Below are positions 13,771-29,935 of a stretch of 58,702 bases of DNA, piece after piece. A program made the translations under genes and the position numbers. The notes beneath the pieces were generated by a model. It was given only the letters and a program-made list of their open reading frames with translations. It had not been told where the DNA came from and did not search any database. The number at the start of each line of letters is the position of its first letter. Within the stretch, counting starts at the first letter, position 1. Location: positions 59,833 to 118,534 of the forward strand of contig MFBU01000014.1 in NCBI GenBank assembly GCA_001775055.1, written 5' to 3'. This stretch comes from Candidatus Curtissbacteria bacterium RIFCSPLOWO2_02_41_11 (lineage in GTDB: Bacteria; Patescibacteriota; Microgenomatia; Curtissbacterales; GWA2-41-24).

Positions 13771-13835
13771 ACATCCACTTCCGAGGTGTACTGGGTTTGC
13801 ACATCGGGATTATTCCTCCATTCTCAAATTCTTCC
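13771..13835 (+). repeat. hairpin repeat family H, copy 1
   Basis: acatccacttccgaggtgtactgggtttgcacatcgggattattcctccattctcaaattcttcc. Differs from 14432..14496 at 2 positions. Stem ccgaggtg/cacatcgg. Confidence 0.8.
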
Positions 13836-14431: not shown

Positions 14432-14496
14432 ACATCCACTTCCGAGGTGTACTGAATTTGCACATCGGGATTATTCCTCCATTCTCAAATTCTTCC
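14432..14496 (+). repeat. hairpin repeat family H, copy 2
   Basis: Near-identical to 13771..13835. Lies 73 nt upstream of the start of ORF 14569. Confidence 0.8.
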
Positions 14497-15308: not shown

Positions 15309-18300
15309 GTGACAAAAAGAATCTCCTGGGGACAACCTTCCAATATCAATTTGCCCTCTCTGGACTTGATTCAAGTTCAGAGAGAATCCTTTAGTGAGTT
15401 TTTAGATAAGGGAATCCGCGAAATCTTGAATGAAGTTTCGCCAATCGAGGACTTTACCGGCAAAAACTTTACTTTAACATTTGGCAACTACAGCTTTGGC
15501 AAATCCAAATATGGCCCGCAAGAAGCCATTGAAAAAGGCGTGACCTATGATCTCCCTCTTAAACTTGAGGCCCAAGTTGTTAATAAGCAAACGGGAGGCA
15601 AAAATTCTCAAGAGGTTTTTTTGTGTGATCTGCCGGTAATGCTTGAGAAAGGTTCTTTTGTTATTAACGGTATTGAAAGGGCGGTTGTTACCCAACTGGT
15701 AAGAGCTCCCGGAGTTTATTATTCCGGCGAAATCGACCCCCAAAGTGGGAAAATGCTTTATAGCTGCGAGATCAGACCGCTTCATGGTTCTTGGCTGGAA
15801 TTTGCCATTACTAAAAACGATCTAATTACAGTCAAAATTGACAGACGCCGAAAATTCCCGGTAACTACCTTTTTGAGGGCAATCGGTTTTTCCGAAAGTC
15901 AATCAATCATCAAGCTGTTTAGCTTCGTAAAAGACGAACAGGCAAAAAAGCTTCTTAACAATACTTTTGCCAAAGATACCACAACCTTACAAGAGGAAGC
16001 ATTGTTGGAGATTTACAGAAGAATGCGCCCGGGCGATCACGTAATTTTGGATAATGCTAAGTCTTTGTTAGAAAACATGTTTTTTAACCCGCGCCGTTAC
16101 TCTTTAGGAAAGGTTGGTAGGTATAAGATTGAGAAGCGCCTAAAATATATCAAAGATCACTTGACAATCGAGGCTCACCAGGATAAAGACAGTCAAATCC
16201 TGACCCCCTCAGATTTTGTTGCTGCCATTGTTTATCTTTTCGAATTAATGGCAGGTCGTGGCCGAGTTGATGATATTGATCATCTCGGTAACAGAAGAGT
16301 CCGACGTGTTGGTGAGCTAGTTGCTCAAAACGCCTTTAGGGTCGGAATTTTAAGACTTGAGAGGGTAATTAAGGAAAGAATGAGCCTAACACCTACCGAT
16401 ACTGTCCCTTCTCCAGCATCATTGATTAATGCCAGACCAATAATTTCGGCAATCAATGAGTTTTTTCGATCTAGTCAGCTTTCAACAATTTTGGATCAGA
16501 CAAACCCTCTTTCGGAAGTGGATAATTTAAGACGCTTGACAGTAATGGGTACAGGTGGCATTGCCAGAGAACGCGCCGCTTTTTCGATTCGCGATATTAA
16601 TCATTCTCAATATTCAAGAATTTGTCCGATTCGTTCACCAGAGGGCCCGAATATCGGACTTGTTACCTATATGGCTCTTTATTGTCGGGTTAATGAATAT
16701 GGATTTTTGGAAGCGCCGTACCGCAGGGTTGTCAAGGATAAAAATGGCAAAGCGAAGGTGACTGATGAGATTATTTACATGGCCGCCGATGATGAGGAAA
16801 ATTATCATATCACCCATGCCCAAGTACCAATAGACTCCAAGGGCTATTTTTGGGAAGAGAGCATCCCGGTTCGCTATAAAGGTGAGTTTACGACCGCCTC
16901 CCGGGATTTGGTTGAATTTATCGATGTTGTCCCAAGACAGGTCGTGGGAACATCGGCGTCATTAATTCCATTTTTGGCCCATGATGAGGCTAATCGGGCA
17001 CTGATGGGTACTCATATGCAGTGTCAGGCCGTACCGCTGATAAAACCCAAGGCTCCGATTATCGGAACCGGCATGGAGGAAATTGTCGGTTTTAACATGG
17101 GCCGAGTTGTCAAAGCACCGCAAGATGGAGAAATAGTTTATGTTGACAGTAAAAAAGTTATTTTGAAAACAAAACCGCAAGGCGTGGCCAAATCTGGGGA
17201 GATTACTTTCCCTATCAACAAGTTTTCTCGATCTCCCCAAAGTACCTGTTATTCTCAAAGGCCACGGGTCGTTATGAGGCAAAAAGTAAAAAAGGGAGAT
17301 GTGCTTATCGACGGTTCAGCAACTGATGAGAGTGAGTTGGCCTTAGGTCAAAATTTGACTATCGCCTACATGAGTTTTGACGGCCTTGGTTACGAGGATG
17401 CAATTGTTATTTCCGATCGACTTTCCAAAGAAGATATTTTGACCTCAATTCATATTGAAGAATACGAGACTACTGTTGTTGAGACCAAACTTGGACCGGA
17501 AGAAACAACCCGTGATATCCCCAATGTTTCCGAAGAGGATTTGGCCAAACTGGACGAAAATGGCATCGTGGTTGTTGGTGCCGAAGTTAGGCCAAATGAT
17601 ATCCTCGTTGGCAAAATAGCACCAAAAGGTGAGACCGAGCTGACCGCAGAAGAAAGGCTGCTCCGCACAATTTTCGGCGAAAAGGCTCGCGAAGTCCGGG
17701 ATACCTCTCTTCGAGTGCCGCATGGTGAAAAGGGAACTGTTATCGATGTCAAAATTCTCTCTCGCGATAAAGGCGATGAACTGGAGCACGGGGCGCTGGC
17801 AAAAATCATTGTTAAAGTTGCCCAAATGCGTAAAGTGGTTGTCGGAGACAAACTCGCAGGGCGTCATGGTAACAAGGGCGTTATTTCCAAAATTGTGCCG
17901 ACTTCCGATATGCCTCACCTTGCCGATGGTACACCTATTGACATTATCATTAGTCCCCTCTCGGTACTTTCTAGGATGAATTTAGGTCAACTTTTGGAAA
18001 CTCATCTCGGTTGGGCTGTTCATACTTTAGGTTACAAGGTTGCCATGCCTGTTTTTGAGCATGTTTCTGAAGAAAAAGTTATTGAGGAGCTTAAACGTGC
18101 CAATCTACCTGAAGATGGCCGAATTACACTTTATGACGGCAGGACAGGTTTACCGTTTGATCGACCGATTGTCGTTGGCAATACTTACATTATGAAACTG
18201 ATCCACATGGTTGAAGATAAAACCCACGCCAGAAGTACCGGGCCATACTCCTTAATTACCCAGCAGCCACTGGGCGGTAAAGCTCAAATGGGTGGTCAAA

Positions 18301-18686
18301 GGCTTGGAGAAATGGAAGTTTGGGCACTGGAGGCATATGGGGCTGCTTACTCTTTGCAAGAAATGTTAACTATTAAATCTGATGATGTTGTAGGTCGTGC
18401 CAAAGCCTTTGAAGCAATCATTAAAGGGGAGGAGATTCCGCAGGCTCTAATCCCTGAATCATTCAAGGTATTAGTTAAGGAATTAAATAGCTTAAGTCTG
18501 AGTGTTAGCACAATTGGTGCCAAGACGATTGAGAAAGCCAAAATTAAACCACAGGAAGAGGAAGAAACCAAACGAGCTCAAGAATTTGCAAAAGTTGCTG
18601 GAGCGCAAGTGATCGCCCAAAGTTCGGAAATCGCCAAAAGTGACAGCGCTATGGAAGTTGAAGAGGTAGGAGGAACTGCCAGATGA
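15309..18686 (+). CDS. rpoB: DNA-directed RNA polymerase subunit beta
   Basis: 1125 aa. Conserved beta-subunit blocks, e.g. GNRRVR, NPLSEV, RLTVMGTGG, GDKLAGRHGNKGV, GGQRLGEMEVWALEAYGAA. GTG start. Confidence 0.98.
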   Translation: MTKRISWGQPSNINLPSLDLIQVQRESFSEFLDKGIREILNEVSPIEDFTGKNFTLTFGNYSFGKSKYGPQEAIEKGVTYDLPLKLEAQVVNKQTGGKNSQEVFLCDLPVMLEKGSFVINGIERAVVTQLVRAPGVYYSGEIDPQSGKMLYSCEIRPLHGSWLEFAITKNDLITVKIDRRRKFPVTTFLRAIGFSESQSIIKLFSFVKDEQAKKLLNNTFAKDTTTLQEEALLEIYRRMRPGDHVILDNAKSLLENMFFNPRRYSLGKVGRYKIEKRLKYIKDHLTIEAHQDKDSQILTPSDFVAAIVYLFELMAGRGRVDDIDHLGNRRVRRVGELVAQNAFRVGILRLERVIKERMSLTPTDTVPSPASLINARPIISAINEFFRSSQLSTILDQTNPLSEVDNLRRLTVMGTGGIARERAAFSIRDINHSQYSRICPIRSPEGPNIGLVTYMALYCRVNEYGFLEAPYRRVVKDKNGKAKVTDEIIYMAADDEENYHITHAQVPIDSKGYFWEESIPVRYKGEFTTASRDLVEFIDVVPRQVVGTSASLIPFLAHDEANRALMGTHMQCQAVPLIKPKAPIIGTGMEEIVGFNMGRVVKAPQDGEIVYVDSKKVILKTKPQGVAKSGEITFPINKFSRSPQSTCYSQRPRVVMRQKVKKGDVLIDGSATDESELALGQNLTIAYMSFDGLGYEDAIVISDRLSKEDILTSIHIEEYETTVVETKLGPEETTRDIPNVSEEDLAKLDENGIVVVGAEVRPNDILVGKIAPKGETELTAEERLLRTIFGEKAREVRDTSLRVPHGEKGTVIDVKILSRDKGDELEHGALAKIIVKVAQMRKVVVGDKLAGRHGNKGVISKIVPTSDMPHLADGTPIDIIISPLSVLSRMNLGQLLETHLGWAVHTLGYKVAMPVFEHVSEEKVIEELKRANLPEDGRITLYDGRTGLPFDRPIVVGNTYIMKLIHMVEDKTHARSTGPYSLITQQPLGGKAQMGGQRLGEMEVWALEAYGAAYSLQEMLTIKSDDVVGRAKAFEAIIKGEEIPQALIPESFKVLVKELNSLSLSVSTIGAKTIEKAKIKPQEEEETKRAQEFAKVAGAQVIAQSSEIAKSDSAMEVEEVGGTAR

Positions 18687-21600
18687 ATGAATTAATTGAT
18701 TTTGAAGCACTAAAGATAACACTGTCTTCTTCCGAAGATATCAAAACCTGGTCTTTTGGTGAGGTTACTAAACCGGAGACAATTAACTACCGAACCTTAA
18801 AGCCCGAAAAAGATGGCCTTTTTGATGAACGAATTTTTGGGCCAACAAAAGATTGGGAATGTTATTGCGGCAAATATAAGCGAATTAGATACAGGGGGAT
18901 TATTTGTGACAAATGCGGTGTCGAAGTAACCCAATCGCGAGTAAGACGTGAGCGCATGGGGCATATTACTCTAGCCGCTCCGGTAGTCCATAATTGGTTT
19001 TTCAAAGGAAGTCCTTCTAAATTAGGTTTAATTTTGGATCTTTCTCCCCGAAGCTTGGATGCGGTTGTCTATTTTGCTTCATATTTGGCAATTGAAGTAG
19101 CTGACGAAGTTAAGAAACAAGTCATTAAAAAATTAAATGGAGAGCTTGAAAAGAAACGCAAAGAAGGGCAGTTGGAACTCAAGAAGAAGTTGGAAGAGCA
19201 GGAAAAAGAAGCTCAAAAGGAGATTTCGAAAATTAAGACTGGGGGTAAGGTTAAAGAGCAAACGGATTTGAAGATAGAAGAGGCTAGACTGTCGATGCGC
19301 CAAAGACAGGCAAAACTCCGTGATGAGAATGCTGTGGAGATCTTGCGGCTTGAGGAAATCTACAAAAATATTACCGATATGGTTTCTTCGATTAAACCCC
19401 TGGATATTCTTTCGGAGGAAGAGTATTTGAAACTAGCCGATTATAATGCCGAAGGTTTCCTCAAAGTTGGTATGGGGGCTGAAGCTTTATATCAGGTTCT
19501 TGAAAAAATCGATTTAGCCGAGCTTTCCATAAAGCTGCGTGAAGAAATACTCAGGGCAACCGGCCAAAAGTACATTAGAGCTACCAAAAAACTTCGGGTT
19601 GTCGAAAGCATGAAAAAATCCGGTATTTTGCCAACTTGGATGATAGTCAAAATTTTGCCGGTTTTACCGCCGGATTTAAGACCAATGGTCCAGCTTTCTG
19701 GGGGCAGATTTGCCACTTCTGACCTTAATGACCTTTACCGAAGAGTTATTAACAGAAACAACCGACTCAAAAAATTAATTGAATTGGGTGCACCGGAAAT
19801 AATCTTGCGCAATGAAAAAAGGATGTTGCAGGAGGCTGTTGATGCTCTTATTGATTCCCAGCGCATTAAATCAACCAGAGCATCTCAGGAGCTGAGATCT
19901 CTTTCCGATATGCTTCGGGGTAAACAGGGAAGATTTAGGCAAAATTTGTTGGGTAAACGTGTCGACTATTCAGGCAGATCGGTAATTGTAGTTGGACCGG
20001 AATTAACCTTAAATCAGGCGGGTATTCCTAAAGAAATGGCTCTTGAGATGTTTAAACCTTTTGTTCTTCGCGAAGTCATTGCCAAAGGGTACGCACCAAA
20101 TGTCAAAAGCGCCAAACATTATCTTGAGCGCAGAAGTGGTGAAGTCTGGGATATTTTAGAGGAAGTTACCAAAAACCATCCTATTCTTTTAAATAGAGCG
20201 CCGACTCTTCATCGTTTGGGGATTCAGGCATTTTACCCAATCTTAATAGAAGGTGATGCCATTAGAATCCATCCTTGTATTTGTGCCGGTTTTAATGCCG
20301 ATTTTGACGGTGACCAAATGGCTGTGCATGTGCCGCTCTCTGCCAAATCAAAAGAAGAAGCGGCTAACTTAATGGTAGCAGGCAAAAACTTACTGCGACC
20401 TGCTGACGGTTCACCAATAACCTTACCCAATAAGGAAATGGCGCTGGGAGTATATTACCTGACATCTCAGGATGCCCAGAGTTCTGAGTATCAAAATGTC
20501 TTCGCAAATGAACTGGATGTCATTTTGGCTTTGAATTCCGGCAAGATCAGGCTTAGGCAGCCGATAAAAATGAAAGCCGCAGGCGAAGTCATCGAGACAA
20601 CAGCAGGTAGGGTTCTATTTAACATGCAACTGCCCGAAGTCCTTCGTTTTATCAATGAAGCAGTCAGCGCTTCAACCATCAAAAGGTTAATTTCGGTGGC
20701 TATTGATCAGCTTAGCGAAGCTGAAGTTATTGATCTTATTGACAGGCTCAAAGGTTTTGGTTTTGAAGGAGCGACGTTTTCTGGCCTTTCGGTATCGGTT
20801 TTTGACTGTATGATTGTCGATGAGAAAAAACAAATTCTTCAAAAGGCAGAAAAAGAGGTTGAGGCTATTGAGAAGAATTTTAGACAGGGACTAATTACCA
20901 AAGATGAACAAAAGCGCCTCTCACAAGAAGTTTGGCTTTCAGTTACCAATAATTTGGCAGATTTAACTTGGAAGAGCTTGCCAAAGGATAACTCAATTAA
21001 AATTATTTCCGATTCAGGCGGTTCTCGGGCTACTGCCGAACAAATAAAACAGTTGGCAGCAATTCGTGGTCTAGTAACCGATCCGTCAGGCCAAATTGTA
21101 CCCCTTCCAGTAAAGTCAAATTTTAGAGAAGGGCTTTCAGTTTTTGAGTACTTTACTTCTGCCCGAGGTGCCAGAAAAGGTTTAGCCGATCGGGCTATTA
21201 AGACTGCCGAGAGCGGATATTTAACCAGGAGATTGGTTGATGTAGCTCATGATGCAATTATTAGAGTGGAAGACTGCGCAACTCATGAGGGAATTATTAT
21301 TTCCAAAAACGACCGTCGCTTAGCATCATTTACTGCAAGACTAGTAGGTAGAGTAACAGCCGCCGACATAATTTTTTCAAAGACTAAAAAAGTTTTGGTT
21401 AAGGCTGGTAGTCTTATTGATGAGCAAATGGCATCTGAAATAGAAAAAAACGGTTTTGAGGAAATTCTAGTCAGGTCTGTTCTTGCCTGTGAAGCTAAAT
21501 ACGGCTTATGTGCTATGTGTTATGGAAAGGATTTGGTTACCAGAAATTTAGTAGCAATTGGAACACCGGTTGGGGTCATTGCCGCCCAAAGTATTGGTGA

Positions 21601-22366
21601 GCCTGGCACTCAGTTGACAATGAGGACATTTCATACCGGTGGTATTGTCGGTTTGGACATTACCCAGGGTTTGCCGAGAGTAGAGGAACTTTTTGAAGCC
21701 AGGATGCCAAAGTTTGCTGCGGCTATTTCAGACATCACCGGTAAGATTAAAATTGAAGAATCTCCTCAAGGATTTCTGATTAAAATTAAAAGTACCAATC
21801 TCAAACCGCCGGTTGAACGTGAGTATTTTGTCCCGCCAACTTCGGAACTAACTGTTTCTAATGGTCAGCTAGTTACTGCCGGAATGCCCCTCTCAAGCGG
21901 CTATTTGGATGTTAAGGAAATTCTGGCAGTTTCCGGACTGCGCGCTGCCCAAAAATACATCACCAGTGGAGCTCAAGAGGTTTATGAAAGCCAGGGAGTA
22001 ACTATTAATGATAAACATTTCGAAGCCATTGTGCGAAAAATGAGTGACAAAGTTAGGATTGAATCGCCCGGCGATACGGTCCTTTTACCTGGAGAGCTAA
22101 TTGATAAAAATCGTTTTGAGGAAGAAAACGCTAAGGTTCTCGCAGAAGGCGGGGAGCCGGCAACTGCGCAAGTAATCATCCTGGGAATTACCAGGGCAGC
22201 TCTTTATACCGAGAGTTTTCTTTCAGCCGCTTCATTCCAAGAGACAACCAGGGTCTTGACCGATGCTGCTATTGAGGGCAAAGTGGATAATCTCCTTGGT
22301 CTTAAAGAAAACGTCATTATCGGAAGACTCATACCAACATCGCCCGAAAGGGCGCAGATACAATGA
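18683..22366 (+). CDS. rpoC: DNA-directed RNA polymerase subunit beta'
   Basis: 1227 aa. Zn-finger CYCGKY...CDKCGVEV, catalytic NADFDGDQMAVH, LNRAPTLHRLGIQAF. ATGA overlap with rpoB. Confidence 0.98.
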   Translation: MNELIDFEALKITLSSSEDIKTWSFGEVTKPETINYRTLKPEKDGLFDERIFGPTKDWECYCGKYKRIRYRGIICDKCGVEVTQSRVRRERMGHITLAAPVVHNWFFKGSPSKLGLILDLSPRSLDAVVYFASYLAIEVADEVKKQVIKKLNGELEKKRKEGQLELKKKLEEQEKEAQKEISKIKTGGKVKEQTDLKIEEARLSMRQRQAKLRDENAVEILRLEEIYKNITDMVSSIKPLDILSEEEYLKLADYNAEGFLKVGMGAEALYQVLEKIDLAELSIKLREEILRATGQKYIRATKKLRVVESMKKSGILPTWMIVKILPVLPPDLRPMVQLSGGRFATSDLNDLYRRVINRNNRLKKLIELGAPEIILRNEKRMLQEAVDALIDSQRIKSTRASQELRSLSDMLRGKQGRFRQNLLGKRVDYSGRSVIVVGPELTLNQAGIPKEMALEMFKPFVLREVIAKGYAPNVKSAKHYLERRSGEVWDILEEVTKNHPILLNRAPTLHRLGIQAFYPILIEGDAIRIHPCICAGFNADFDGDQMAVHVPLSAKSKEEAANLMVAGKNLLRPADGSPITLPNKEMALGVYYLTSQDAQSSEYQNVFANELDVILALNSGKIRLRQPIKMKAAGEVIETTAGRVLFNMQLPEVLRFINEAVSASTIKRLISVAIDQLSEAEVIDLIDRLKGFGFEGATFSGLSVSVFDCMIVDEKKQILQKAEKEVEAIEKNFRQGLITKDEQKRLSQEVWLSVTNNLADLTWKSLPKDNSIKIISDSGGSRATAEQIKQLAAIRGLVTDPSGQIVPLPVKSNFREGLSVFEYFTSARGARKGLADRAIKTAESGYLTRRLVDVAHDAIIRVEDCATHEGIIISKNDRRLASFTARLVGRVTAADIIFSKTKKVLVKAGSLIDEQMASEIEKNGFEEILVRSVLACEAKYGLCAMCYGKDLVTRNLVAIGTPVGVIAAQSIGEPGTQLTMRTFHTGGIVGLDITQGLPRVEELFEARMPKFAAAISDITGKIKIEESPQGFLIKIKSTNLKPPVEREYFVPPTSELTVSNGQLVTAGMPLSSGYLDVKEILAVSGLRAAQKYITSGAQEVYESQGVTINDKHFEAIVRKMSDKVRIESPGDTVLLPGELIDKNRFEEENAKVLAEGGEPATAQVIILGITRAALYTESFLSAASFQETTRVLTDAAIEGKVDNLLGLKENVIIGRLIPTSPERAQIQ

Positions 22367-22377
22367 GTCTAAAGATA

Positions 22378-22399
22378 ATATCAGACGAAGTGCTGATAT
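22378..22399 (+). repeat. ATATCAG/CTGATAT palindromic element A (minimal form)
   Basis: atatcag-acgaagtg-ctgatat. Lies between the rpoC stop and the relic rpoC 3' end. Confidence 0.65.
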
Positions 22400-22448
22400 A
22401 ATTGGCCGATTGATTCCAACCAGCCCTGAACGTGCAAGGATTCAGTAA
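22398..22448 (+). pseudogene. relic second copy of the rpoC 3' end
   Basis: Encodes IIGRLIPTSPERARIQ* vs authentic IIGRLIPTSPERAQIQ* (22316..22366). Almost every codon differs synonymously. It is in a different frame from rpoC. Confidence 0.8.
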
Positions 22449-22469
22449 ACCGGTCAATTCTGATATAAT
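22441..22469 (+). promoter_or_regulatory. putative rpsL promoter (extended -10)
   Basis: TGaTATAAT at 22461..22469 with a weak -35 TTCAGT 17 nt upstream. A second TGATATAAT lies at 22394..22402 inside element A. Confidence 0.45.
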
Positions 22470-22492
22470 CTGAAGATCAATTGGAGCATAGT

Positions 22493-22987
22493 ATGCCGAC
22501 AGTTAATCAACTTATAAGAAAAGGTCGAAAGTCAAAGCCAAAAAGAATAAGAGCAACGGCGCTTCGCCGTGCTTTTAACACGCATAAAAATAGGTACGTT
22601 TATTATCCTTCCGGTCAAAAAAGAGGTGTTTGCGTGGTTGTTAAAACCATGACACCCAAAAAACCGAATTCGGCGCTTAGAAAAGTTGCCAGAGTCCGTC
22701 TTTCCAATAAGCAAGAAGTAACTGCTTATATTCCAGGAATTGGCCATGAACTGGCCGAGCATTCGGTTGTTTTAATTCGCGGTGGCAGAGTTAGGGATTT
22801 ACCCGGAGTTAAATACCACATAATTCGAGGTAAATACGATACCACTGGTGTTGTTGGCAGGAAACAAGGACGCTCTTTATACGGTACTAAAATATCGGGT
22901 GCAGTTACGGGAGCCCAAGCGGCAGCAACTGTTGGTCAGGCGGCAGCAGTCTCACAGGCTCAAGTCGAAGCACCAGCAGAAGGCTAA
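22493..22987 (+). CDS. rpsL: 30S ribosomal protein S12 with about 30-aa Ala/Gln-rich C-terminal extension
   Basis: [13 protein letters not shown]...[15 protein letters not shown]...[20 protein letters not shown] 22493 is preceded by ggag. Confidence 0.95.
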
Positions 22988-23095
22988 TTTAAAAAGTAAA
23001 AATGAAAAAGGAAAAAGTAAATTTTCAATTTTCACTTGCCGAAAGCAACGCAAAGCTTTTCAATTTTCAATTTTGCGACCGAAGGGAGCATTATT

Positions 23096-23590
23096 GTGCC
23101 ACGAACTGGTAAGGTTGAAAAAAGACAAATTGCGCCAGATCCAATCTATCAAAGTCCTCAAGTTGCCAAGCTTGTTAATAAACTGATGATTTCCGGTAAG
23201 AAAGCTTTGGCGCAAAGAATTATTTATGAAGCTTTTAAATTAATTGCCAAAAAAGATAAAGATCCACTGGCGACATTTGAAAAGGCTCTGGAAAATGTTA
23301 CACCCAAAATGGAAGTTCGGCCAAGAAGAGTCGGTGGAGCTTCTTACATGGTCCCGATGGAAGTTAGAGGTGTCAGAAGAATGTCGCTTGCCATTTCTTG
23401 GTTGGTTGTTGCAGCCAGAAGCCGCACCCCTAGTGAAGTAGAAAAGCTTAAGAATAAACCGCTGATGATTTCTAAACTTACAGCCGAGATTTTAGATGCT
23501 GCCGAAGGCACTGGAAAGGCAGTTGCCAAAAGGGAAGAAATGCACCGCATGGCTGAGGCAAACAAAGCGTTCGCACACTTCAGGTGGTGA
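23096..23590 (+). CDS. rpsG: 30S ribosomal protein S7
   Basis: VPRTGKVEKRQIAPDPIY...MEVRPRRVGGASYMVP...ANKAFAHFRW. GTG 23096 follows gaagggag. The ORF track start at 23036 is probably too early. Confidence 0.95.
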   Translation: MPRTGKVEKRQIAPDPIYQSPQVAKLVNKLMISGKKALAQRIIYEAFKLIAKKDKDPLATFEKALENVTPKMEVRPRRVGGASYMVPMEVRGVRRMSLAISWLVVAARSRTPSEVEKLKNKPLMISKLTAEILDAAEGTGKAVAKREEMHRMAEANKAFAHFRW

Positions 23591-23602
23591 ACGAACGCTT
23601 TG
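23563..23602 (+). other. perfect 11-bp inverted repeat enclosing the rpsG stop codon
   Basis: caaagcgttcg (23563..23573) pairs with cgaacgctttg (23592..23602). The loop contains ...agg tgg tga. Confidence 0.7.
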
Positions 23603-23675
23603 TGCAGTCCTCCTAAATTTGCTCCTCGAGCCGTCTATGGATAATAGTGAAAAGGCGAGAGGTAAGAATTGGAGG

Positions 23676-23708
23676 GCAAATAAGGCTTTCGCACATTTTC
23701 GTTGGTAA
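23676..23708 (+). pseudogene. relic copy 2 of the rpsG 3' end
   Basis: gca aat aag gct ttc gca cat ttt cgt tgg taa = ANKAFAHFRW*. Identical peptide to the authentic end, with synonymous differences. Confidence 0.8.
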
Positions 23709-23783
23709 CGAAAATACTTGCAACTGCCTTGCGAGTACTGCGCTTGCTATCTAGATCGTTGTCAGATAGCACTCCGTACTCTA

Positions 23784-23810
23784 AAGGCTTTTGCCCACTT
23801 TCGTTGGTAA
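23784..23810 (+). pseudogene. relic copy 3 of the rpsG 3' end
   Basis: aag gct ttt gcc cac ttt cgt tgg taa = KAFAHFRW*. Confidence 0.75.
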
Positions 23811-23921
23811 TAGACTACTCGCCACAAATTCACCCAATGTGCTATAATCTGCGCTTAGTTTTGATTATTGTCAACAAGGCTATTTTTCTGCTTAAATAAA
23901 ATTTGTTAAGGATATTTGAAT

Positions 23922-24215
23922 ATGGTGCAAGCTAAAGCTCAAAAATTAAAACAATTAAAAAACAGGCTCAAAGAGCTTGAAGAAGTCAAGCTCAAAGAGG
24001 CGCTGGCCAAATATGGCGAGGCCTACCAAGAGTCCGGTTCGGCCTGGAATGAAAATGCTGCCTGGGAGCTTGCGGATGAAGAAGTTTCGGTACTTCGTGC
24101 AATGATTACCGAAATCAAAAATGAAATCAGAAATCTTGAGCATCCGGCAATTTCCCAGCTTAACGTTGAACCTCAAACTTCAAAAGCTGGTAAAAAATAT
24201 TCCAATTCCAAATAA
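23922..24215 (+). CDS. small coiled-coil protein resembling the GreA/GreB N-terminal domain only
   Basis: GEAYQESGSAWNENAAWELADEEVSVLRAMITEIKNEI parallels the GreA pattern (..GD..ENAEY.AA.E.Q....I..I). There is no C-terminal domain. aagga SD lies 8 nt before the ATG. TGcTATAAT at 23839..23847 lies upstream. Confidence 0.45.
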   Translation: MVQAKAQKLKQLKNRLKELEEVKLKEALAKYGEAYQESGSAWNENAAWELADEEVSVLRAMITEIKNEIRNLEHPAISQLNVEPQTSKAGKKYSNSK

Positions 24216-24228
24216 GACAGAAACTGCC

Positions 24229-24279
24229 ATGACACAGAAACAAAATAGACTGTATCCGCTTGACCGAATTCGCAATATA
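24229..24279 (+). pseudogene. relic copy of the fusA 5' end
   Basis: MTQKQNRLYPLDRIRNI vs authentic [17 protein letters not shown] (24374..). Divergence is synonymous. Homology stops exactly where palindromic element B begins. Confidence 0.75.
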
Positions 24280-24339
24280 TCAGCAGGTCGCCTTGGCACA
24301 ATTCTTCGAATTCGTGCCAAGGGCGCTCCTCTGATATAT
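24275..24339 (+). repeat. ATATCAG/CTGATAT palindromic element B
   Basis: atatatcagcaggtcgcc-[ttggcac aattc ttc gaatt c gtgccaa]-gggcgctcctctgatatat. The outer arms are the reverse complement of those in element C. The inner hairpin differs. Confidence 0.75.
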
Positions 24340-24373
24340 TGCTTGTTAGACTCGATGTCGAAAGGAGTTAATC

Positions 24374-26503
24374 ATGCCTGATAAAAACTCTCGACTATAT
24401 CCATTAGAAAGAATACGCAATATTGGTATTATTGCCCATATTGACGCGGGCAAAACCACGACAACTGAACGAATCCTTTTTTATACAGGCAAGACTTATA
24501 AACTGGGCAACATCGATGAAGGTAGCACCGTAACCGATTGGATGGCCCAGGAGAAAGAAAGAGGAATCACCATTGTATCGGCAGCAGTTACCACCTTCTG
24601 GATACCAAAAGAAGGTCCCTTTGCCGGTACTGAAACTCGGATTAATATCATTGATACTCCGGGTCACGTTGACTTTACGGCCGAGGTTGAAAGGTCACTT
24701 CGCGTTTTGGATGGTGGTGTAACAGTTTTAGACGCCGAGGAAGGCGTTCAATCGCAATCGGAAACAGTTTGGCGTCAGGCCGACAAATACAAAGTACCCC
24801 GAATTTGCTTTATCAACAAAATGGATAAAATGGGGGCAGACTATTTTGCCACTCTTAAATCAATCCGTGAGCGCCTTGGGGCTCCGGCCTGCCCATATAA
24901 TTTGCCATTAGGCCGCGAAAATGAATTTCAGGGAATCATTGACCTTTTGACTCAAAAAGCCTACGTCTGGAAAGACGAAACTGGTATGAAATTTGAAGAA
25001 ATTCCCATTCCAGAAGAGGAAAAGGCCAATGTTGAAAAATATCGGCACGAGCTTGTGGAAAAGATTGCCGAAAATGACGATACTTTACTCGAAAAATATT
25101 TAAAAGGCGAGCAAATTGAGACCGACGAGCTTAAGAAAGCTTTGAGGAAAGCCGTTATTACCTATAAAATCGTCCCGGTTTTGGCAGGTTCCAGTCTTCG
25201 CAATAAAGGAGTCCAGCCGCTTCTTGATGCAGTTGTTGATTATTTACCATCACCTCCAGATATTGTCGAGATTCAAGGAATTAATCCGAAAACCGGCGGA
25301 AAGGAAGTTCGTAAGCAAACTATAGATGCTCCTTTCTGCGGTTTGGCTTTCAAAATCCAAATTGATCCGCATGTCGGCAAACTTACTTATGTGCGAATTT
25401 ATTCCGGTACTTTAAAATCCGGGACTTCGGTTTTAAACGCCACTAGACACGATCGTGAAAGAATTGGCCGAATTCTTTTGATGCATGCCAATACCAGGGA
25501 AGAAATTGCTGAAAGCTATGCCGGAGAAATTATTGCTATTGTCGGACTCAAAAACACGGCCACAGGCGATACTCTTTGCAATGAGGCCGCTCCGATAATC
25601 TTAGAAACTATATCCTTTCCCGAACCGGTTATTTCCATGGCCATCGAACCTAATACCAAAGCGGATCAAGAAAAACTAGGTTACGCCTTAGGCAGGCTTA
25701 GTGAGGAAGATCCTACTTTTAAAATTAAAAGCGATTTTGAAACCGGTCAAACGATTATTTCCGGTATGGGCGAACTTCACTTAGAAATTTTGGTTGATCG
25801 TATGAAGCGCGAATTTGCGGTTGACGCCAAAGTCGGCAGACCTCAAGTTGCCTATAAAGAAACCATCGCAGGGCAAGCAACAGGTGAAGGTAAATACATT
25901 AGGCAATCCGGAGGCAGGGGTCAGTACGGCCATTGTTTCCTGCGGGTCGAACCTAAACCCCGCGGCGAAGGCTACGAATTTAAATCCGAAATCAAAGGCG
26001 GGGCGATTCCACAAGAATTTATACCGTCTGTTGAGAAGGGCGTTCGCGAAAAAATGGATATGGGTGTTTTAGCGGGTTTTCCGATGGTTGATATGAAAGT
26101 TGCTGTTTATGACGGAACTTATCACGATGTCGATTCTTCGGATATTGCCTTTAAAATCGCAGGAAGCTTGGCGCTCGAAGCGGCCGCCAAAAAAGCAGGC
26201 CTTACTCTTCTTGAGCCGATTATGAAAGTTGAAGTAACCATTCCTGAACAGTTCATGGGAGATGTTATTGGCGATTTATCGGCAAAACGGGCTCAAATTC
26301 TTTCAAGCGAACACCACGGCAAAAGTGTCATCATTACTGCTTTGGTACCACTTTCGGAAATGTCCGGATATGTGACAACTTTACGTTCTATGACTCAAGG
26401 CAGAGGTTCTGTCTATATGGAACCTTCTCACTACGAAGAAGTCCCCCAAAATATTGCAGATAAAATAGTGGCGAAAGCGAAAGGGGAGAGTAAAGAAAGC
26501 TAG
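24374..26503 (+). CDS. fusA: elongation factor G
   Basis: [38 protein letters not shown]. 709 aa. Confidence 0.98.
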
Positions 26504-26530
26504 CAAATTATAGGTGTACCACGAGTGGTC

Positions 26531-26608
26531 AGAGTATCAAGAGTACCACAAGCTTTTTAAGTTTTAAGCTCGTGATACCCGCGGTACTTTTAAAACCTTT
26601 GATACTCT
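26531..26608 (+). other. long imperfect hairpin downstream of fusA
   Basis: agagtatcaa (26531..26540) pairs perfectly with ttgatactct (26599..26608). An inner stem gtaccacaagc/gctcgtgatac is built from repeated words gtaccac/gtatcaa. Confidence 0.55.
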
Positions 26609-26732
26609 TAAATTCACCTCTTGCATTAGCCTGCCAAAATAGTATAAACTAGGCATTACAATCAGTCTAACTGACTGATGTTTTATTGCAATCAAAATTA
26701 CCCAAATTTCGAAGAAATTTGGATTTGACGGC

Positions 26733-27914
26733 ATGGCAGAAAAATTTGAAAGAACTAAACCGCATGTTAATATCGGCACCATTGGTCACGTAGACCATGG
26801 TAAGACCACGCTAACTTCGGCTATCACCAAAGTCTTGGCCAAAAAAGGTTTGGCTCAAGAAAAAACTTTCGATCAAATTGATAACGCTCCGGAGGAAAAA
26901 CAGCGCGGCATAACCATCAATATTACTCATGTGGAGTATGAAACCGAGAAGCGCCACTATGCCCATATTGACGCTCCAGGCCATGCAGACTATATCAAGA
27001 ACATGATTACCGGTGCTGCCCAGATGGACGGCGCAATTTTGGTGGTCTCTGCGCCTGACGGCCCTATGCCTCAAACCCGCGAACATGTACTTTTGGCAAG
27101 GCAAGTTAATGTCCCGGCCATTGTTGTCTATTTAAATAAGGTCGATATGGTTTCTGACAAAGAACTTTTGGATCTGGTTGAACTGGAGATTCGAGAGTTA
27201 CTTGATAAATACCAGTTTGACGGCAAAAATGCCGTCATCATTCGCGGTTCTGCCCTTAAAGCTTTGGAAGACGATGCCGAGGCAGTCAAATCAATTGAGG
27301 ATTTAATGGCCGCAGTTGATGAAAAAATTCCTACACCTGCTCGCGACCTCGACAAACCTTTCCTCATGCCTATCGAAGATGTTTTTTCAATTAAAGGTCG
27401 GGGAACTGTTGTTACCGGTCGTGTTGAGCGTGGCGTGGTTAAGGTTAATGAAGAGATTGAAATCGTCGGCATTAAACCTACCAAAAAGACAGTCGTTACC
27501 GGAGTTGAGATGTTCAGGAAGCAACTAGATCAAGGTCAGGCCGGTGATAATATCGGCGTCTTGCTTCGCGGAGTCGAAAAAGATGATGTTGAGCGCGGTC
27601 AGGTCTTAGCCAAACCGGGAACTACTACTCCCCATACCGAATTTGAAGCCGAGGTCTACATTTTAGCCAAAGAGGAAGGTGGCCGTCATACGCCATTTTT
27701 TACAGGTTACAGGCCTCAATTTTACATCAGAACTACCGATGTCACCGGCGAGGCCACTTTGCCTGAAGGCACGGAAATGGTCATGCCCGGCGACAACATC
27801 AAAATGAAAGTCAAACTTATTGCACCGGTTGCCCTAGAAGAAGGCTTAAGATTTGCAATTCGCGAGGGCGGCCACACGGTTGGCGCCGGCGTGGTTGCCA
27901 AGATTCTTGCCTAA
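26733..27914 (+). CDS. tuf: elongation factor Tu
   Basis: [32 protein letters not shown]. 393 aa. Confidence 0.98.
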
Positions 27915-27924
27915 TGCAGGAATC

Positions 27925-27959
27925 GACCCCTAGGCATTTGCCGCAGGGGTCTTTTTTTT
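27925..27959 (+). terminator. rho-independent terminator after tuf
   Basis: gacccct-aggcatttgccgc-aggggtc followed by T8. Confidence 0.85.
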
Positions 27960-27965
27960 GATATC

Positions 27966-28047
27966 ATATCTCAGCTCAGCTGAGTCTGATATATCAGAGG
28001 AGCGCCATTGCGAGGACTTTAGTCTCGCAAGGCGACCTGCTGATATA
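27966..28047 (+). repeat. ATATCAG/CTGATAT palindromic elements C0 (27966..27992) and C (27989..28047), sharing the junction ctgatatatcag
   Basis: C = atatatcagaggagcgcc-[attgcgagga cttta gtctcgcaa]-ggcgacctgctgatata. C0 = atatc(tc)ag-ctcagctgag-tctgatat. Confidence 0.7.
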
Positions 28048-28226
28048 CAATTGACGATCGCAAGATCTGAAGTGTGAAGTTAGAAATGCGAAGCTTGATT
28101 TTTGAAGTGAGAAAAATCGATTATAGCCAACTTTCAAATCAACTCGAATCTCACTTCGATATCTAGATTCCAACCCCTTACTTCTCACTTCTATTGTAAA
28201 CTTTCTGTCCGAAGGAGGTGTTACGA

Positions 28227-28538
28227 ATGCCAGAGGTTGAGGTAACAGAACAGGAAATGCATGCAATTGAGAGCTGGATTATTCACAATTCAAGACATTA
28301 TATGTTGAACATCGTTGGGAATCGGGATAAAAGAGAAAAGGGTGTAGCACATATTGCCGATGGAGAACCAATAGTTTTCCGTCCACTTTTTAAAGATGTC
28401 GCTAATATTTCGGGATACGGTATGTCTACAAGCAATGAAGTTTTAGTCAAACTAAGACAAGCTGGAGTCCAAAGACAAGGAATTATTGATGCAATCGATC
28501 AGGCGGCTTCGAGAGCGAAAGCTGATTTGGGGATCTAA
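28227..28538 (+). CDS. hypothetical protein inserted between tuf and rpsJ
   Basis: About 103 aa. aaggagg SD 8 nt before ATG 28227. No recognisable motif. Confidence 0.5.
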   Translation: MPEVEVTEQEMHAIESWIIHNSRHYMLNIVGNRDKREKGVAHIADGEPIVFRPLFKDVANISGYGMSTSNEVLVKLRQAGVQRQGIIDAIDQAASRAKADLGI

Positions 28539-28579: not shown

Positions 28580-28888
28580 ATGCCAAAGGGAAGAATTCGG
28601 GTTAAATTAAAAGCTTACGATGCGCGGGTAATGGACGCGGCTTGTCGTGATATTATAAACACGGCTTTATCAACCGGAGCCAAAATTTCCGGGCCAATTC
28701 CCTTGCCAACCAAAATCCAAAGATTCACGGTTTTGACCAGCCCGCACACTGATAAAGACGCCCGTGAGCAGTTTGAGATGCGTATTCACAAGCGCTTAGT
28801 TGATATTATCGAGCCAACGAATAAGACAATTGATTCGCTAACTCATTTAGACCTACCGGCTGGAGTAGATATTGAAATTAAAATGTAG
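28580..28888 (+). CDS. rpsJ: 30S ribosomal protein S10
   Basis: [10 protein letters not shown]...[10 protein letters not shown]...[25 protein letters not shown]. Confidence 0.97.
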
Positions 28889-29182
28889 ATACGAATGTAT
28901 CCTAATTTGATTAGTCCGAATTTATCCTAACATTCGGATTCATTCGGAGTAATTTCATTCGGATAAATTCGTCAATCAGGAGGTATTTGACAAAAACTAA
29001 ATAAACAATTAACCATTAACAATTGACAATTGACATTTGACATTGTTAATCGGTGGGACACCTGAAGACATCTAAGGAGTCCTGCTTTTTTGCTGCTTGA
29101 ATCCGAATTGATCCGAATCAAGTTAATCCAAATTAACTCGAATATTAGGATTTATTAGGAGTAATAATTAGGAAAAATTAGG

Positions 29183-29935
29183 ATGATAAATACGATATTG
29201 GGCTTAAAAAAAGGAATGACAGCTCAATTTGATCAACATGGCCGGCGAATTCCGGTTACAAATATCGTGGCAGAGCCCAATGTCGTTTTGGCAATCAAGG
29301 ATGGCCGTATTCAACTGGGTTTTGGCCGAAAAAAGAAATTTAAAAAAACCGAAAATGCCTATGTTAAAAATGTCGGCTATGCTCCAAGGTTTATTAAGGA
29401 AGTAAAAATTGATAATGAAAAGCAAGAAATCAAAATCGGAGACAAAATGACTGTCTCCGTTTTTGAGCTCGGCGATTTGGTTAAAGTAACCGGTATAACT
29501 CTCGGTAAGGGATTTACAGGAGTAGTTAAAAGATGGGGTTTTGCCGGCGGGCCAAAAACTCACGGCCAATCTGATCGACACAGGGCTCCAGGTTCCATTG
29601 GTCAAACTACCACTCCGGGTCGTGTTTTTAAAGGTAAAAAAATGGCAGGACACATGGGTGTTGGCAAATTAACAGTGACTGGTCTTGAAGTTGTCAATAT
29701 TGACCCAGCCAAAAACCTGCTGGAGGTTAAAGGTTCGGTTCCAGGTAGCCGCAATGGTTTTTTGATTATTGAAAAAACCGGCAAGCTTAAGAGCTATACT
29801 TCGGCTCCACCACCGAAAGAAAAAGAAGAAGAGACAAAGGCCAAAGAGAAATCAGAAGAGTCAGAGGAAATAAAGGAGCCAAAGGGAGAAAGTAAAACAG
29901 ATCCTAAAGAGGAAAAAGAAACAGAGGAGAAATAA
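29183..29935 (+). CDS. rplC: 50S ribosomal protein L3 with Lys/Glu-rich C-terminal tail
   Basis: GLKKGMTAQFD..G..IPVT, GKGFTGVVKRWGFAGGPKTHGQSDRHRAPGSIG. Confidence 0.97.
   Translation: MINTILGLKKGMTAQFDQHGRRIPVTNIVAEPNVVLAIKDGRIQLGFGRKKKFKKTENAYVKNVGYAPRFIKEVKIDNEKQEIKIGDKMTVSVFELGDLVKVTGITLGKGFTGVVKRWGFAGGPKTHGQSDRHRAPGSIGQTTTPGRVFKGKKMAGHMGVGKLTVTGLEVVNIDPAKNLLEVKGSVPGSRNGFLIIEKTGKLKSYTSAPPPKEKEEETKAKEKSEESEEIKEPKGESKTDPKEEKETEEK

Follow-up and report, generated by a model that had tools for sequence, protein, structure and literature searches.

A Family of Small Hairpin Elements with a Polar Association with Relic Gene Ends in Curtissbacteria

Palindromic elements that lie between core genes of a Candidatus Curtissbacteria genome belong to a hairpin family of at least 115 copies, one arm of which repeatedly adjoins truncated relics of gene ends. 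On balance, we think that the three copies studied here, A, B, and C, are small non-autonomous, REP/MITE-like recombinogenic hairpins that are specific to the Curtissbacteria and have one polar end. They lie in a stretch of 58,702 nucleotides, which is called the window below.

Elements and relic gene ends in the window

An earlier note, made from the sequence of the window, had described A, B, C, and a possible fourth palindrome, C0, and had placed arms of A and B at points where relic gene ends start or stop. Both the positions and the coincidence of the ends were confirmed. The features are as follows.

22378 to 22399, minus strand: element A, ATATCAG-N8-CTGATAT, a copy of the B/C type that has collapsed through internal deletion
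22397 to 22448, plus strand: rpoC relic, the last 16 codons plus stop (IIGRLIPTSPERARIQ), adjoining the canonical left (CAGNT) arm of A
22460 to 22469, plus strand: rpsL box, CTGATATAAT, 24 nt upstream of the rpsL ATG and identical to the element terminus
24229 to 24278, plus strand: fusA-start relic, MTQKQNRLYPLDRIRNI, the first 16 codons, starting 13 nt past the ORF99 stop and cut off at the left arm of B
24275 to 24339, plus strand: element B, a full copy in canonical orientation; inner hairpin, TTGGCACAATTCTTCGAATTCGTGCCAA; covariance model score, 67.9 bits
24340 to 24373, plus strand: spacer between B and the functional fusA start, with its own Shine-Dalgarno sequence (aaaggag)
27961 to 27992, minus strand: C0, a companion small hairpin, ATATCAt-at-CTCAGC-tca-GCTGAG-t-CTGATAT, with ATAT common to the right arm of C
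27989 to 28047, minus strand: element C, a full copy, canonical on the minus strand; inner hairpin, TTGCGAGACTAAAGTCCTCGCAA; covariance model score, 78.6 bits
24275 to 28047, no strand: unit B-fusA-tuf-C0-C, in which B and C are inverted, each with its right arm toward the interior, and perfect inverted repeats of 20 nt form the ends

The outer ATATCAG...CTGATAT sequences span 24277 to 24337 in B and 27991 to 28046 in C. As the note had described, B and C have common outer arms in opposite orientations and different centers: both 18-nt arms match with 0 to 1 mismatch, the outermost 20 nt form a perfect inverted repeat, and the central hairpins show no sequence relation. The folds predicted for both are very stable (for B, −42 kcal/mol, z = −9.7). 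The palindrome at A is also real, but it is not a separate minimal form. The covariance model aligned it on the minus strand as ATATCAGCAC-TT(33 positions deleted)CG-TCTGATAT, with 23.3 bits, and at the same rpoC-rpsL junction, a relative (L127) carries a full copy in reverse orientation together with an rpoC relic of its own. C0 has a degenerate left arm (ATATCAT), and the orthologous copy in L035 keeps an intact ATATCAG. The arrangement CTGATAT/ATCAG-hairpin-CTGATAT beside a canonical right arm was found at about 10 other loci (for example, L035, L074, L076, and L123); C0 is thus a distinct, recurrent class of companion hairpin.

Dinucleotide shuffles gave 0.00 to 0.01 expected matches for ATATCAG...CTGATAT patterns of the A, B, and C types. 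For CTGATAT itself, 5.8 occurrences were expected in the window and 15 were found, eight of them within A, B, C, and C0 and one more in the promoter-like rpsL box at 22460. Since the covariance model found no further family copy in the 58.7 kb, all window copies lie in the rpoC-rpsL-rpsG-fusA-tuf-rpsJ junctions, in agreement with the note.

The rpoC relic begins inside the right arm of A, as read on the forward strand. It shares 67% DNA identity with the real rpoC end but differs from it in only 1 of 16 amino acids, and the two copies therefore diverged as functional genes. The fusA-start relic terminates inside the left arm of B. In L206 and L207, where the element is absent, the real fusA gene begins exactly at the relic position and is 92% identical to the relic. 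The spacer at 24340 to 24373 is part of the incoming DNA; L208 has another spacer and another fusA start to the right of the same B junction. Relic and read-through open reading frames in this region, such as that at 24121 to 24381, are annotation traps.

The B-fusA-tuf-C0-C unit may be a single replacement segment. When we sought its right-hand boundary through the contexts of ORF103, we found only window-like strains and contig L220, which breaks 64 nt from C. Comparison of identities with relatives gave no clear signal of the origin or age of the fusA-tuf segment.

Family size, fold, and turnover of the element

The family extends well beyond the window. A 22-base pattern retrieved the copies of the B and C family, at least 115 in all, from metagenome stretches of groundwater and sediment, and the ten arm positions that the pattern left free were nearly invariant. 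The arms are asymmetric and almost unchanging (ATATCAG-CAGNT-CGCC...GGCG-CTCCT-CTGATAT). The inner hairpin is variable and shows strong compensatory covariation: 94.7% of inner-stem cells were paired, and 84 cells had changed on both sides versus 25.7 in shuffles, with none of 500 shuffles reaching 84. This bears out the earlier view of a conserved outer stem around an inner stem that keeps its structure and varies in sequence. The element is 47 to 76 nt long, with terminal inverted repeats that are perfect over seven bases and imperfect over about 16 nt, and a center of 15 to 45 nt. The arms meet only once it is folded. An extrahelical C, a 1x2 loop, and a T bulge are conserved in the folded form. 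The commonest apical loop on the reverse strand is a GAA triloop closed by C-G, a kind typical of very stable DNA mini-hairpins, and the reverse strand is predicted to be slightly stabler (−28.2 versus −26.5 kcal/mol). The flanks read T/ATATCAG...CTGATAT/A in about 75% of copies, and because the flanking ATAT is self-complementary, a target duplication cannot be distinguished from a repeat. The arms are about 100% conserved among hosts whose RF2 proteins are only 62 to 70% identical.

The note had not recognized a described element, and neither did we. Rfam 15 gave no match at the gathering threshold and none at an E value of ≤10 over 22300 to 28300, and we found no small interspersed element family described in the literature for the Curtissbacteria or the candidate phyla radiation (CPR). 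The family had no matches in viral contigs, phages, and plasmids or in 837 kb of non-CPR str-operon loci, and no solo arms or long versions were seen in 950 kb. About 94% of copies are intergenic, with housekeeping genes as neighbors. Two full copies occur in the 58.7-kb window and two in 104 kb of relatives; extrapolation from these counts gives about 10 to 30 copies per 1-Mb genome.

Comparison of filled and empty sites, which the note had proposed, showed that relatives within the Curtissbacteria are empty at all three junctions: rpoC-rpsL (L126, L128, L130, and L132), ORF99-fusA (L126, L128, L130, L131, L132, L206, and L207), and tuf-rpsJ (L126 to L131). L207, a short contig, matches the window at 100% identity as far as 23906 and at about 84% beyond that point, and it may be chimeric; the empty ORF99-fusA site is also present in L206.

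Filled sites exchange their inner hairpins. The inner hairpin of C was found again at nonhomologous loci (L042, L039, and rpoC-rpsL in L127), and the orthologous C copy at tuf-rpsJ in L035 has a different one. At grpE-dnaK, the place and orientation of the element are kept in four species and the arms persist, and the inner hairpin is replaced between orthologous filled sites. The uppP-prfB gap holds the element in either orientation, depending on the species. Exchange also involves the right flank. Strain L007 matches the window at 99.86% identity but carries another inner hairpin in B, where 11 of its 21 mismatches fall; its B allele is that of lineage L208, which has a different fusA start to the right.

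Polarity of the breakpoint association

The association with breakpoints is not limited to the window, since relic gene and tRNA ends recur at many other loci. Similarity between the two flanks exceeded every null pair at nine element sites, and further relic cases were found in L127 (twice), in L021 (tRNA-Ile), and in L210. Differences between relic and intact copies are mostly synonymous or compensatory. Truncated copies were found next to the left arm 10 times and never next to the right arm, and the intact gene always lay beyond the other arm from the stub; the breakpoint association is thus polar, involving the CAGNT arm only. In 10 of 13 relic cases, the stub came within 5 nt of this arm through a microhomology of 2 to 6 nt, for example CTGATA with the anticodon loop of tRNA-Ile in L021 and AT/ATAT at fusA, with CGCAACATCGG as the native sequence. 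In the three exceptions to abutment (L016, L112, and L080), other palindromic modules lie between the relic and the element. A model in which the junctions are RNA 3' ends made at a terminator was rejected because the T-rich flank is on the right arm and the junctions are at the left arm.

Relics were present at 6 of 87 element sites versus 3 of 150 other intergenic sites (odds ratio, 3.6; p = 0.08), and stacked relics without an element occur at rpsG in the window and at SecA in L077. Because relics are also found at element-free sites, their formation is a more general feature of these genomes, in which the element may be just one type of junction module.

Possible origins and relationships of the element

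In the explanation that we prefer, two near-invariant, slightly asymmetric arms would pair only when one strand folds, around an inner hairpin that is freely replaceable, and the element would spread between loci and lineages along with the DNA flanking its right arm. There, ordinary homologous recombination in a conserved gene would join it to the recipient. At the left (CAGNT) terminus, joining would be illegitimate, using the 2- to 6-nt microhomology with ...CTGATAT/ATATCAG..., and a join that fell within one of the recipient's own gene ends would leave a truncated relic next to the left arm. Once inserted, the arms could serve as portable homology, so that the inner hairpin and the adjacent gene segment could be exchanged anew. 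Because its termini match the local extended −10 consensus (cTGATATAAT) exactly, a copy might also supply or preserve a promoter for the gene on the right-arm side. The direction of transfer and any promoter activity are our inferences, as is the agent that makes the left-arm end special, which might be a strand-specific nuclease, an HUH-type enzyme, or passive protection of the incoming single strand by the hairpin. Several observations sit less easily with this explanation: no enzyme was found near the copies, a density of about 2 full copies per 50 to 100 kb is unlike classic REP/MITE bursts, the enrichment of relics at the element is modest, and both the near-complete conservation of the arms and the 2:1 orientation bias could equally reflect a cellular function.

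Such a function could be that of a host cis-regulatory module, in which a terminator, RNA-processing, or protein-binding hairpin upstream of an extended −10 box insulates adjacent genes, the arms are conserved through binding of a host factor, and the relics are incidental to frequent recombination. The downstream gene is co-oriented with the element in about 69% of copies, and divergent contexts outnumber convergent ones 16 to 8. The constancy of place and orientation at grpE-dnaK fits this idea, as do the relics at other intergenic sites. The right flank is T rich at positions 2 to 6, and the right arm with its flank reads TGATATAAT/TGATATATT followed by a T-rich tract and often by AATTTT...AAAATT-ATG. 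The note's description of the arms as extended −10 boxes is correct as a matter of sequence. The empty rpoC-rpsL sites in L130 and L126 keep CTGATATAAT and TTGATATAAT, respectively, at the place of the rpsL box, which is presumably the −10 element of the rpsL promoter, and half-elements are reused at rpsL as a Shine-Dalgarno sequence in L129 and as a −10 box in L131. A promoter or processing role is suggested by resemblance and position. A simple consensus scan for sigma-70 promoters and terminators, however, called the arms neither, a result of little informative value, and for 36 of 91 copies there was no gene reading into the element in the terminator orientation. About 30% of copies are reversed relative to genes and GC skew, one gap can hold either orientation, identical inner hairpins occur at unrelated loci, and the element is dispensable, since many orthologous gaps are empty in close relatives. 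The 10-to-0 preference of relics for one specific arm has no explanation in regulatory terms, and we consider this account unlikely.

Another account is that of an enzyme-specific single-strand recombination site, a folded hairpin that, with its conserved bulges, would be recognized by a dedicated HUH-type nuclease or a tyrosine recombinase, as in integron attC sites, IS200/IS605 or IS91 ends, REP/RAYT systems, and oriT. A nick at the left-arm terminus would join a strand carrying the element and its right-side DNA to ATAT-like pseudosites. Arms that meet only in the fold, the conserved extrahelical C, 1x2 loop, and T bulge, the reverse-strand triloops, a strand bias of 53 to 25 relative to GC skew (about 2:1), and a junction strictly confined to one terminus, with short similarity to it, all suit such a site. 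The earlier note had likewise considered an HUH/Y1, Xer, or integron-like cassette. That idea found no support: HUH, relaxase, and recombinase genes were not found near any copy, clustering of neighbors and open reading frames within 4 kb of about 100 copies yielded nothing but housekeeping families and pilins, with no transposase or recombinase that recurred, and the copies lack integron core sites, the GTAG motif of REP sequences, and cassette arrays. No RAYT or Y1 HUH protein was detected among 37 nonribosomal window open reading frames scanned against Pfam; the only recombination-type genes there are an unrelated rve insertion sequence (IS), an HNH-NUMOD3 endonuclease, and RecA/RuvX. That IS (46303 to 47310), the only one in the window, has its own 27-nt inverted repeats, unrelated to the element ends. 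ATATCAG copies flanking it at 45637 and 47619 were rejected as relatives, both being in coding sequence. A 70:30 strand bias is also weak for a strictly single-strand system, and we regard a dedicated site of this kind as rather improbable. A bolder possibility, which we advance as a speculation unlikely to prove right, is that polar, strand-specific DNA transfer or insertion in CPR bacteria, by a new HUH-like or competence-linked process, has its origin or terminus at the hairpin, which would then be a dedicated vehicle of core-gene exchange between diverged lineages. Transfer would start at the terminus of the CAGNT arm and carry adjacent, often essential, genes into related genomes, replacing gene ends and leaving relic stubs behind. 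Least credible, to the point that we give it almost no weight, is an assembly artifact in which the junctions are chimeric joins of co-occurring strains at a shared repeat. The material is metagenomic, arms are identical between species, L220 breaks near C, and L207 looks mosaic; but the 2 to 6 nt shared at relic-element junctions fall far short of what a graph join would need, these junctions recur in an NCBI genome and in at least 15 contigs obtained independently from various samples with various assemblers, and junctions with other sequences exist in other species (L127, L208, L210, and L021).

Like REP sequences and REPINs, the element is a short, imperfect extragenic palindrome in which two inverted arms around a spacer form a hairpin, and it is non-autonomous, bulged and asymmetric, conserved by lineage, and biased in orientation. 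Unlike them, it has no GTAG-type 5' motif, its termini being (T)ATATCAG/CTGATAT(A), and no RAYT gene within 4 kb of about 100 copies. Its apparent copy density here is much lower, its inner part is replaced wholesale, and one terminus marks foreign-DNA junctions and relic ends, which is not a described property of REPINs. With short MITEs (the Neisseria Correia element and the pneumococcal RUP; IS630/Tc1-mariner ends) it shares terminal inverted repeats flanked by TA or ATAT (here TA/TCAG...CTGA/TA), an intergenic location, termini that can create −10 boxes, and long hairpins when transcribed. It differs in its small size, low copy number, and polar relic association, and no autonomous partner with the same ends was found in 950 kb. 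Integron attC sites are built alike, with an inverted outer core of 7 bp (the R boxes), a short spacer that is unpaired and has extrahelical bases, and an inner L-like stem with a terminal structure variable in form and length; attC works as a folded single strand, as the element may do. The cores of the element are nevertheless ATATCAG/CTGATAT rather than RYYYAAC/GTTRRRY, and instead of an integrase, attI, and a cassette array there are single copies in both orientations among essential and housekeeping genes. It also differs from IS200/IS605 ends and PATEs, being a single hairpin with inverted termini rather than two different subterminal hairpins and having variable sequence 5' of the left arm, with no fixed tetra- or pentanucleotide. 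Comparison with an intrinsic terminator gave a mixed picture: the T-rich right flank would fit one, and the 36 copies without an incoming gene and the outcome of the consensus scan would not. The TIGR-Tas arrays of CPR bacteria also differ from these single hairpins, being made of guides in tandem.

The junctions themselves resemble homology-facilitated illegitimate recombination in natural transformation, with one side anchored in a conserved gene, the other joined through 2 to 6 nt of microhomology, and an insertion with partial duplication. That generic process does not predict that the illegitimate end should repeatedly be the same hairpin terminus. Gene-end-displacing elements, such as tRNA-targeting islands and the atp6 insertion of Allomyces mitochondria, leave an intact gene whose end is foreign, with the displaced native end after it, and the double-hairpin elements of chytrid mitochondria, small and at variable intergenic sites, resemble the element described here. 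In our case, however, no integrase or endonuclease is encoded, many genes are targeted at both 5' and 3' ends, and what is inserted measures tens of nucleotides, not kilobases.

CPR bacteria have tiny genomes with few known mobile elements, and we know of no cultured Curtissbacteria. Judged by the literature that we found, this is the first such small interspersed element family for the group. Its conserved arms are likely contig break points. The stubs at one defined hairpin end are a built-in record of exchange of core genes (rpoC, fusA-tuf, rpsG, GAPDH, pth, and tRNA-Ile) between lineages that have diverged by 15 to 30% in DNA. Should the polarity be the work of an enzyme, there is a new single-strand recombination system to discover; should it be passive, the family remains a ready marker for recombination tracts and strain mosaics in groundwater metagenomes.

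Palindromic elements in the rpoC to rpsJ region

The window is part of a Candidatus Curtissbacteria genome (candidate phyla radiation) from the Rifle aquifer. A protein identical to its rpsL product is encoded on GCA_001774895.1 (MFBH01000043) and many Rifle contigs, and the nearest named relatives of S7 and ORF99 are all Curtissbacteria. The palindromes lie exactly where the earlier note placed them, at a frequency far above chance. As it had also described, B and C have both 18-nt arms in common, in opposite orientation, around unrelated centres, and homology to truncated second copies of gene ends ("relics") starts inside the right arm of A and stops inside the left arm of B. The features are as follows.

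Gene order, palindromic elements and relics
15309-18686, rpoB
18683-22366, rpoC
22378-22399 (-), element A
22397-22448, rpoC relic, starting inside the right arm of A
22493-22987, rpsL
ending at 23590, rpsG
23916-24215, ORF99, GreA-N-like
24229-24278, fusA-start relic, ending inside the left arm of B
24275-24339 (+), element B
24374-26503, fusA
26733-27914, tuf
27961-27992 (-), element C0
27989-28047 (-), element C
28227-28538, ORF103
28580-28888, rpsJ, followed by rplC

ORF103, between C and rpsJ, has no Pfam match and is missing from the tuf-rpsJ gap in 7 of 7 related species examined. S12 (164 aa) is extended at its C terminus by ~40 residues, in which Ala, Gln and Val are abundant; its relatives align over residues 1-133 only. 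Elsewhere, the window encodes a Dcm-type cytosine methylase together with a Vsr mismatch endonuclease, as well as a PIN/ribbon-helix-helix toxin-antitoxin pair (8094-9619 and 13023-13755, both on the minus strand). A free-standing HNH-NUMOD3 homing-endonuclease-like gene (49392-50093, minus strand) adjoins tRNA-Pro (50149-50223), directly upstream of recA-recX. At 46303-47310 lies a small insertion sequence that contains an rve (DDE integrase) ORF and has inverted repeats of 27 nt; its ends are unrelated to the hairpin family.

Conserved arms around a variable inner hairpin

We searched metagenomes, as the earlier note had proposed, with the pattern ATATCAG-N5-CGCC-N15-45-GGCG-N5-CTGATAT, in which 22 bases are fixed. 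At least 115 stretches matched; the same 22-base pattern had no match in viral contigs. Among the matches listed, the arms read ATATCAG-CAG[G/T/A]T-CGCC (canonical left, or CAGNT, arm) and GGCG-CTCCT-CTGATAT (canonical right arm) in all but two, and the ten arm positions left free by the pattern are nearly invariant. Host divergence is moderate (RF2 62-70% identical), while the arms are essentially identical. The palindrome is one base longer (T…A) in ~75% of copies. The right flank is T-rich, with AAT, ATT or ATC directly after CTGATAT, and together with the right arm it gives TGATATAAT-like boxes.

The hairpin at the centre falls into a few recurrent classes, among them TTGGCAC…ATGCCAA, TTGCGAG…CTCGCAA and TCAG…CTGA; in some copies, its loop contains a second, nested hairpin between direct repeats of 5 nt. 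In 76-nt members (e.g., loci L029, L043, L101 and L114) the nested hairpin is TCGAGTNNGACTCGA, bounded by TTTCA…TTTCA or CTTCG…CTTCG, and its sequence looks as if it had been inserted with target duplication. In a 47-sequence alignment, both sides of the inner stem had changed in 84 cells versus 25.7 in shuffles, and 0 of 500 shuffles reached 84. This compensatory change, taken with the near-invariant arms, indicates conservation of sequence in the arms and of structure in the centre. The length of the centre ranges from 15 to 45 nt, so the arms come to lie next to each other only if one strand folds.

We used the alignment to build a covariance model, which matched only B, C and A in the window, detected two full copies in the loci of related Curtissbacteria (104 kb), and had no match in str-operon loci of other phyla (837 kb). 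Rfam gave no match for the element even at E <= 10, a search of plasmid and phage sequences gave none, and a literature search returned no described counterpart. On the minus strand, A aligned to the model through its two arm stubs, with 33 inner positions missing. At the same rpoC-rpsL junction, the related locus L127 has a full reverse-oriented copy with the inner hairpin of the window's C and its own rpoC relic. This makes A a collapsed copy.

C0 belongs to a second class, a simple hairpin with ATATCAG/CTGATAT termini that shares ATAT with the canonical right arm; this pairing recurs at ~10 other loci, and L035, which is closest to the window in fusA and tuf, has an orthologous copy of it. 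The element is also repeatedly accompanied by other small palindromes, e.g., AATTTT…AAAATT directly before start codons and GTCTTCCTCTGC…GCAGAGCGAC. In several species, a small ATCAG…CTGAT hairpin lies 3' of a conserved tuf promoter. That promoter (TTGCAT-N17-TATAAA; window 26620-26680) is kept in L128, L129, L131 and L132, and the hairpin after it in relatives is ATATCAGCC…GGCTGATAT, with ATCAG…CTGAT termini as in the element. A different repeat structure lies in the rpsJ-rplC gap (28889-29184): a run of TTGACA-like repeats is enclosed by inverted arms of 62 nt (79% complementary) and direct repeats of 65 nt that are rich in ATCCGAAT-like units. Another 65-nt direct repeat (13771-13835 and 14432-14496, 97% identical) lies on either side of an RRM-domain protein gene (14030-14332); a shorter, partial third copy at ~47785-47810 contains GCACATCGGGA.

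Approximately 94% of 106 unique element sites are intergenic, and the neighbours are housekeeping genes (prfB, grpE-dnaK, greA, GAPDH, pth, uppP, L27, L10 and aminoacyl-tRNA synthetases). Neither solo arms nor long versions occurred in 950 kb. Orientation is biased ~2:1, not absolutely: gene orientations around the copies were 37 versus 16 in tandem contexts and 16 versus 8 for divergent versus convergent, and the canonical strand was the G-rich strand in 53 versus 25. A CTGATATAAT box is the presumed rpsL promoter in the window, and the same box is found at empty sites of relatives; judged from sequence and position, a promoter role for the arms is plausible.

Relic gene ends and site polymorphism

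The association with breakpoints extends beyond the cases in the window. When we compared the two flanks of every copy as peptides, nine sites scored above all 150 mismatched-pair controls. The relics derive from the rpoC end (window A), the fusA start (window B, = L067), the GAPDH end (L016), the pth start (L063), the pyrophosphatase end (L080; 84 nt, 99% identity), the start of an unnamed gene (L082), the EF-P end (L112), a short C-terminal piece (L118) and the uppP end (L120). Further cases are two in L127, the rpsG end in L210, and L021, where an intact tRNA-Ile is followed by 24 nt, a reverse-oriented element and the 3' half of a diverged tRNA-Ile. The geometry is the same in three weaker cases (L039, L042 and L085).

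Relics and intact copies differ mostly by synonymous changes, including codon-family switches, or, in the tRNA relic, by compensatory changes in the T-stem. Both copies were therefore functional in separate lineages before they were juxtaposed, and in situ decay of a duplication is ruled out. The truncated copy lay 0-5 nt from the canonical left arm in 10 cases and from the right arm in 0 (two-sided binomial, ~0.002; common ancestry is possible for two pairs). The intact gene, its start or end facing the element, lies 12-60 nt past the right arm. Other palindromic modules stand between relic and element in L016, L112 and L080. Junctions show 2-6 nt of similarity to the element terminus: the L021 relic starts in the anticodon loop CTGATAA versus CTGATAT in the element, native fusA has CGCAACATCGG versus CGCAATAT joined to ATCAG in the window, and the L210 join falls at AT.

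Comparison of empty and filled sites, also proposed in the earlier note, revealed polymorphism at rpoC-rpsL, ORF99-fusA and tuf-rpsJ. The rpoC-rpsL gap is empty in L126, L128, L130 and L132, has a full copy and relic in L127, and has a collapsed copy and relic in the window. Half-elements are found in L129, where the AGGAG arm is the rpsL Shine-Dalgarno sequence, and in L131, where the other arm is a -10. The tuf-rpsJ gap lacks both element and ORF103 in L126-L131. ORF99-fusA is empty in L126, L128, L130, L131 and L132 and also in L206/L207, the lineage closest to the window (92% identity in ORF99), whose fusA begins 13 nt past ORF99, exactly at the position of the window's relic. This start is 92% identical to the relic and only ~60% identical to the window's functional start. 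The relic is thus the ancestral native fusA start; B, the spacer and the present fusA start were imported.

Inner hairpins also turn over. C0 and C in L035 are orthologous to those of the window, with identical arms and flanks and an unrelated inner hairpin, and at grpE-dnaK in four species the inner hairpin is likewise replaced between kept arms. The uppP-prfB gap holds the element in either orientation, depending on the species. L007, from the window's own species, is 99.86% identical over 17.8 kb, with 11 of the 21 mismatches inside B, and its B allele is that of L208. L208 has the relic-element junction in common with the window, whereas its spacer and fusA start to the right differ. Exchange between lineages has therefore affected not only the inner hairpin but also the DNA right of the element, and the conserved arms are the obvious homology for it. 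One inner hairpin occurs at unrelated loci (window C, L127 rpoC-rpsL, L042 and L039), which argues for copying between loci.

Proposed movement of a polar element with its right-hand DNA

The best-supported reading is a nonautonomous, REP/MITE-like hairpin element that travels together with the DNA adjoining its right arm. One end would be fixed by homologous recombination in the adjacent conserved gene, and the left-arm terminus would be joined through microhomology. A relic would arise where that join falls within the recipient's gene end, and the arms would afterwards serve as portable homology for more exchange.

Relics are not exclusive to the element: they occurred at 6 of 87 element sites versus 3 of 150 intergenic control gaps elsewhere in these loci (odds ratio 3.6, p = 0.08), and stacked relics lie beside other small hairpins at SecA (L077) and at rpsG in the window. 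In L077 (~4700-5140), the SecA C terminus (…KRCGLIDAPQHKG*) is followed by two more relic copies, with no canonical element. The rpsG 3' end (…KAFAHFRW*) stands three times in tandem in the window (real, 23564-23590; relics, 23682-23708 and 23784-23810), with other small hairpins between. In L208, the real rpsG end leads directly into the sequence found after the window's second relic, which marks both relics as insertions. Stacking of gene-end relics is more widespread in these genomes, and relic formation looks like a general outcome of frequent interlineage recombination. What is specific to the element is the exact abutment of relics to one terminus.

The short contig L207, compared with window 21130-24278, is 100% identical for 2,777 nt up to 23906 and ~84% identical from 23907, and may be either a chimera or a true mosaic whose breakpoint lies at the ORF99 promoter; the empty ORF99-fusA site is independently present in L206. 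Otherwise an assembly artefact is excluded: the junctions have too few common bases to be joined in an assembly graph, and they turn up across many species and independent assemblies. A model based on transcript 3' ends is contradicted because the T-rich flank is on the right arm and the junctions are at the left. The left-arm polarity holds at 5' and 3' gene ends alike, and is predicted neither by simple selection for a promoter or terminator nor by a model in which any hairpin passively shields a DNA end. The polarity points instead to a strand- or sequence-specific step in the movement of the element, e.g., a nick 5' of ATATCAG on the canonical strand.

We found no enzyme for such a step, and no transposase or recombinase family recurred among the immediate neighbours or within 4 kb of copies. 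The architecture resembles that of integron attC, but core sites, integrase and cassette arrays are absent, and these results give no support to the suggestion of an HUH/Y1- or Xer/integron-like cassette. The element works most like REP/REPIN sequences and very short TA-targeting MITEs, although it lacks the GTAG motif, no RAYT gene was seen near copies and no autonomous partner was found. It is best filed under "small interspersed palindromic elements," with two unusual properties: an inner hairpin that is replaced wholesale while the arms stay invariant, and a polar terminus by which junctions to imported core-gene segments can be recognized.
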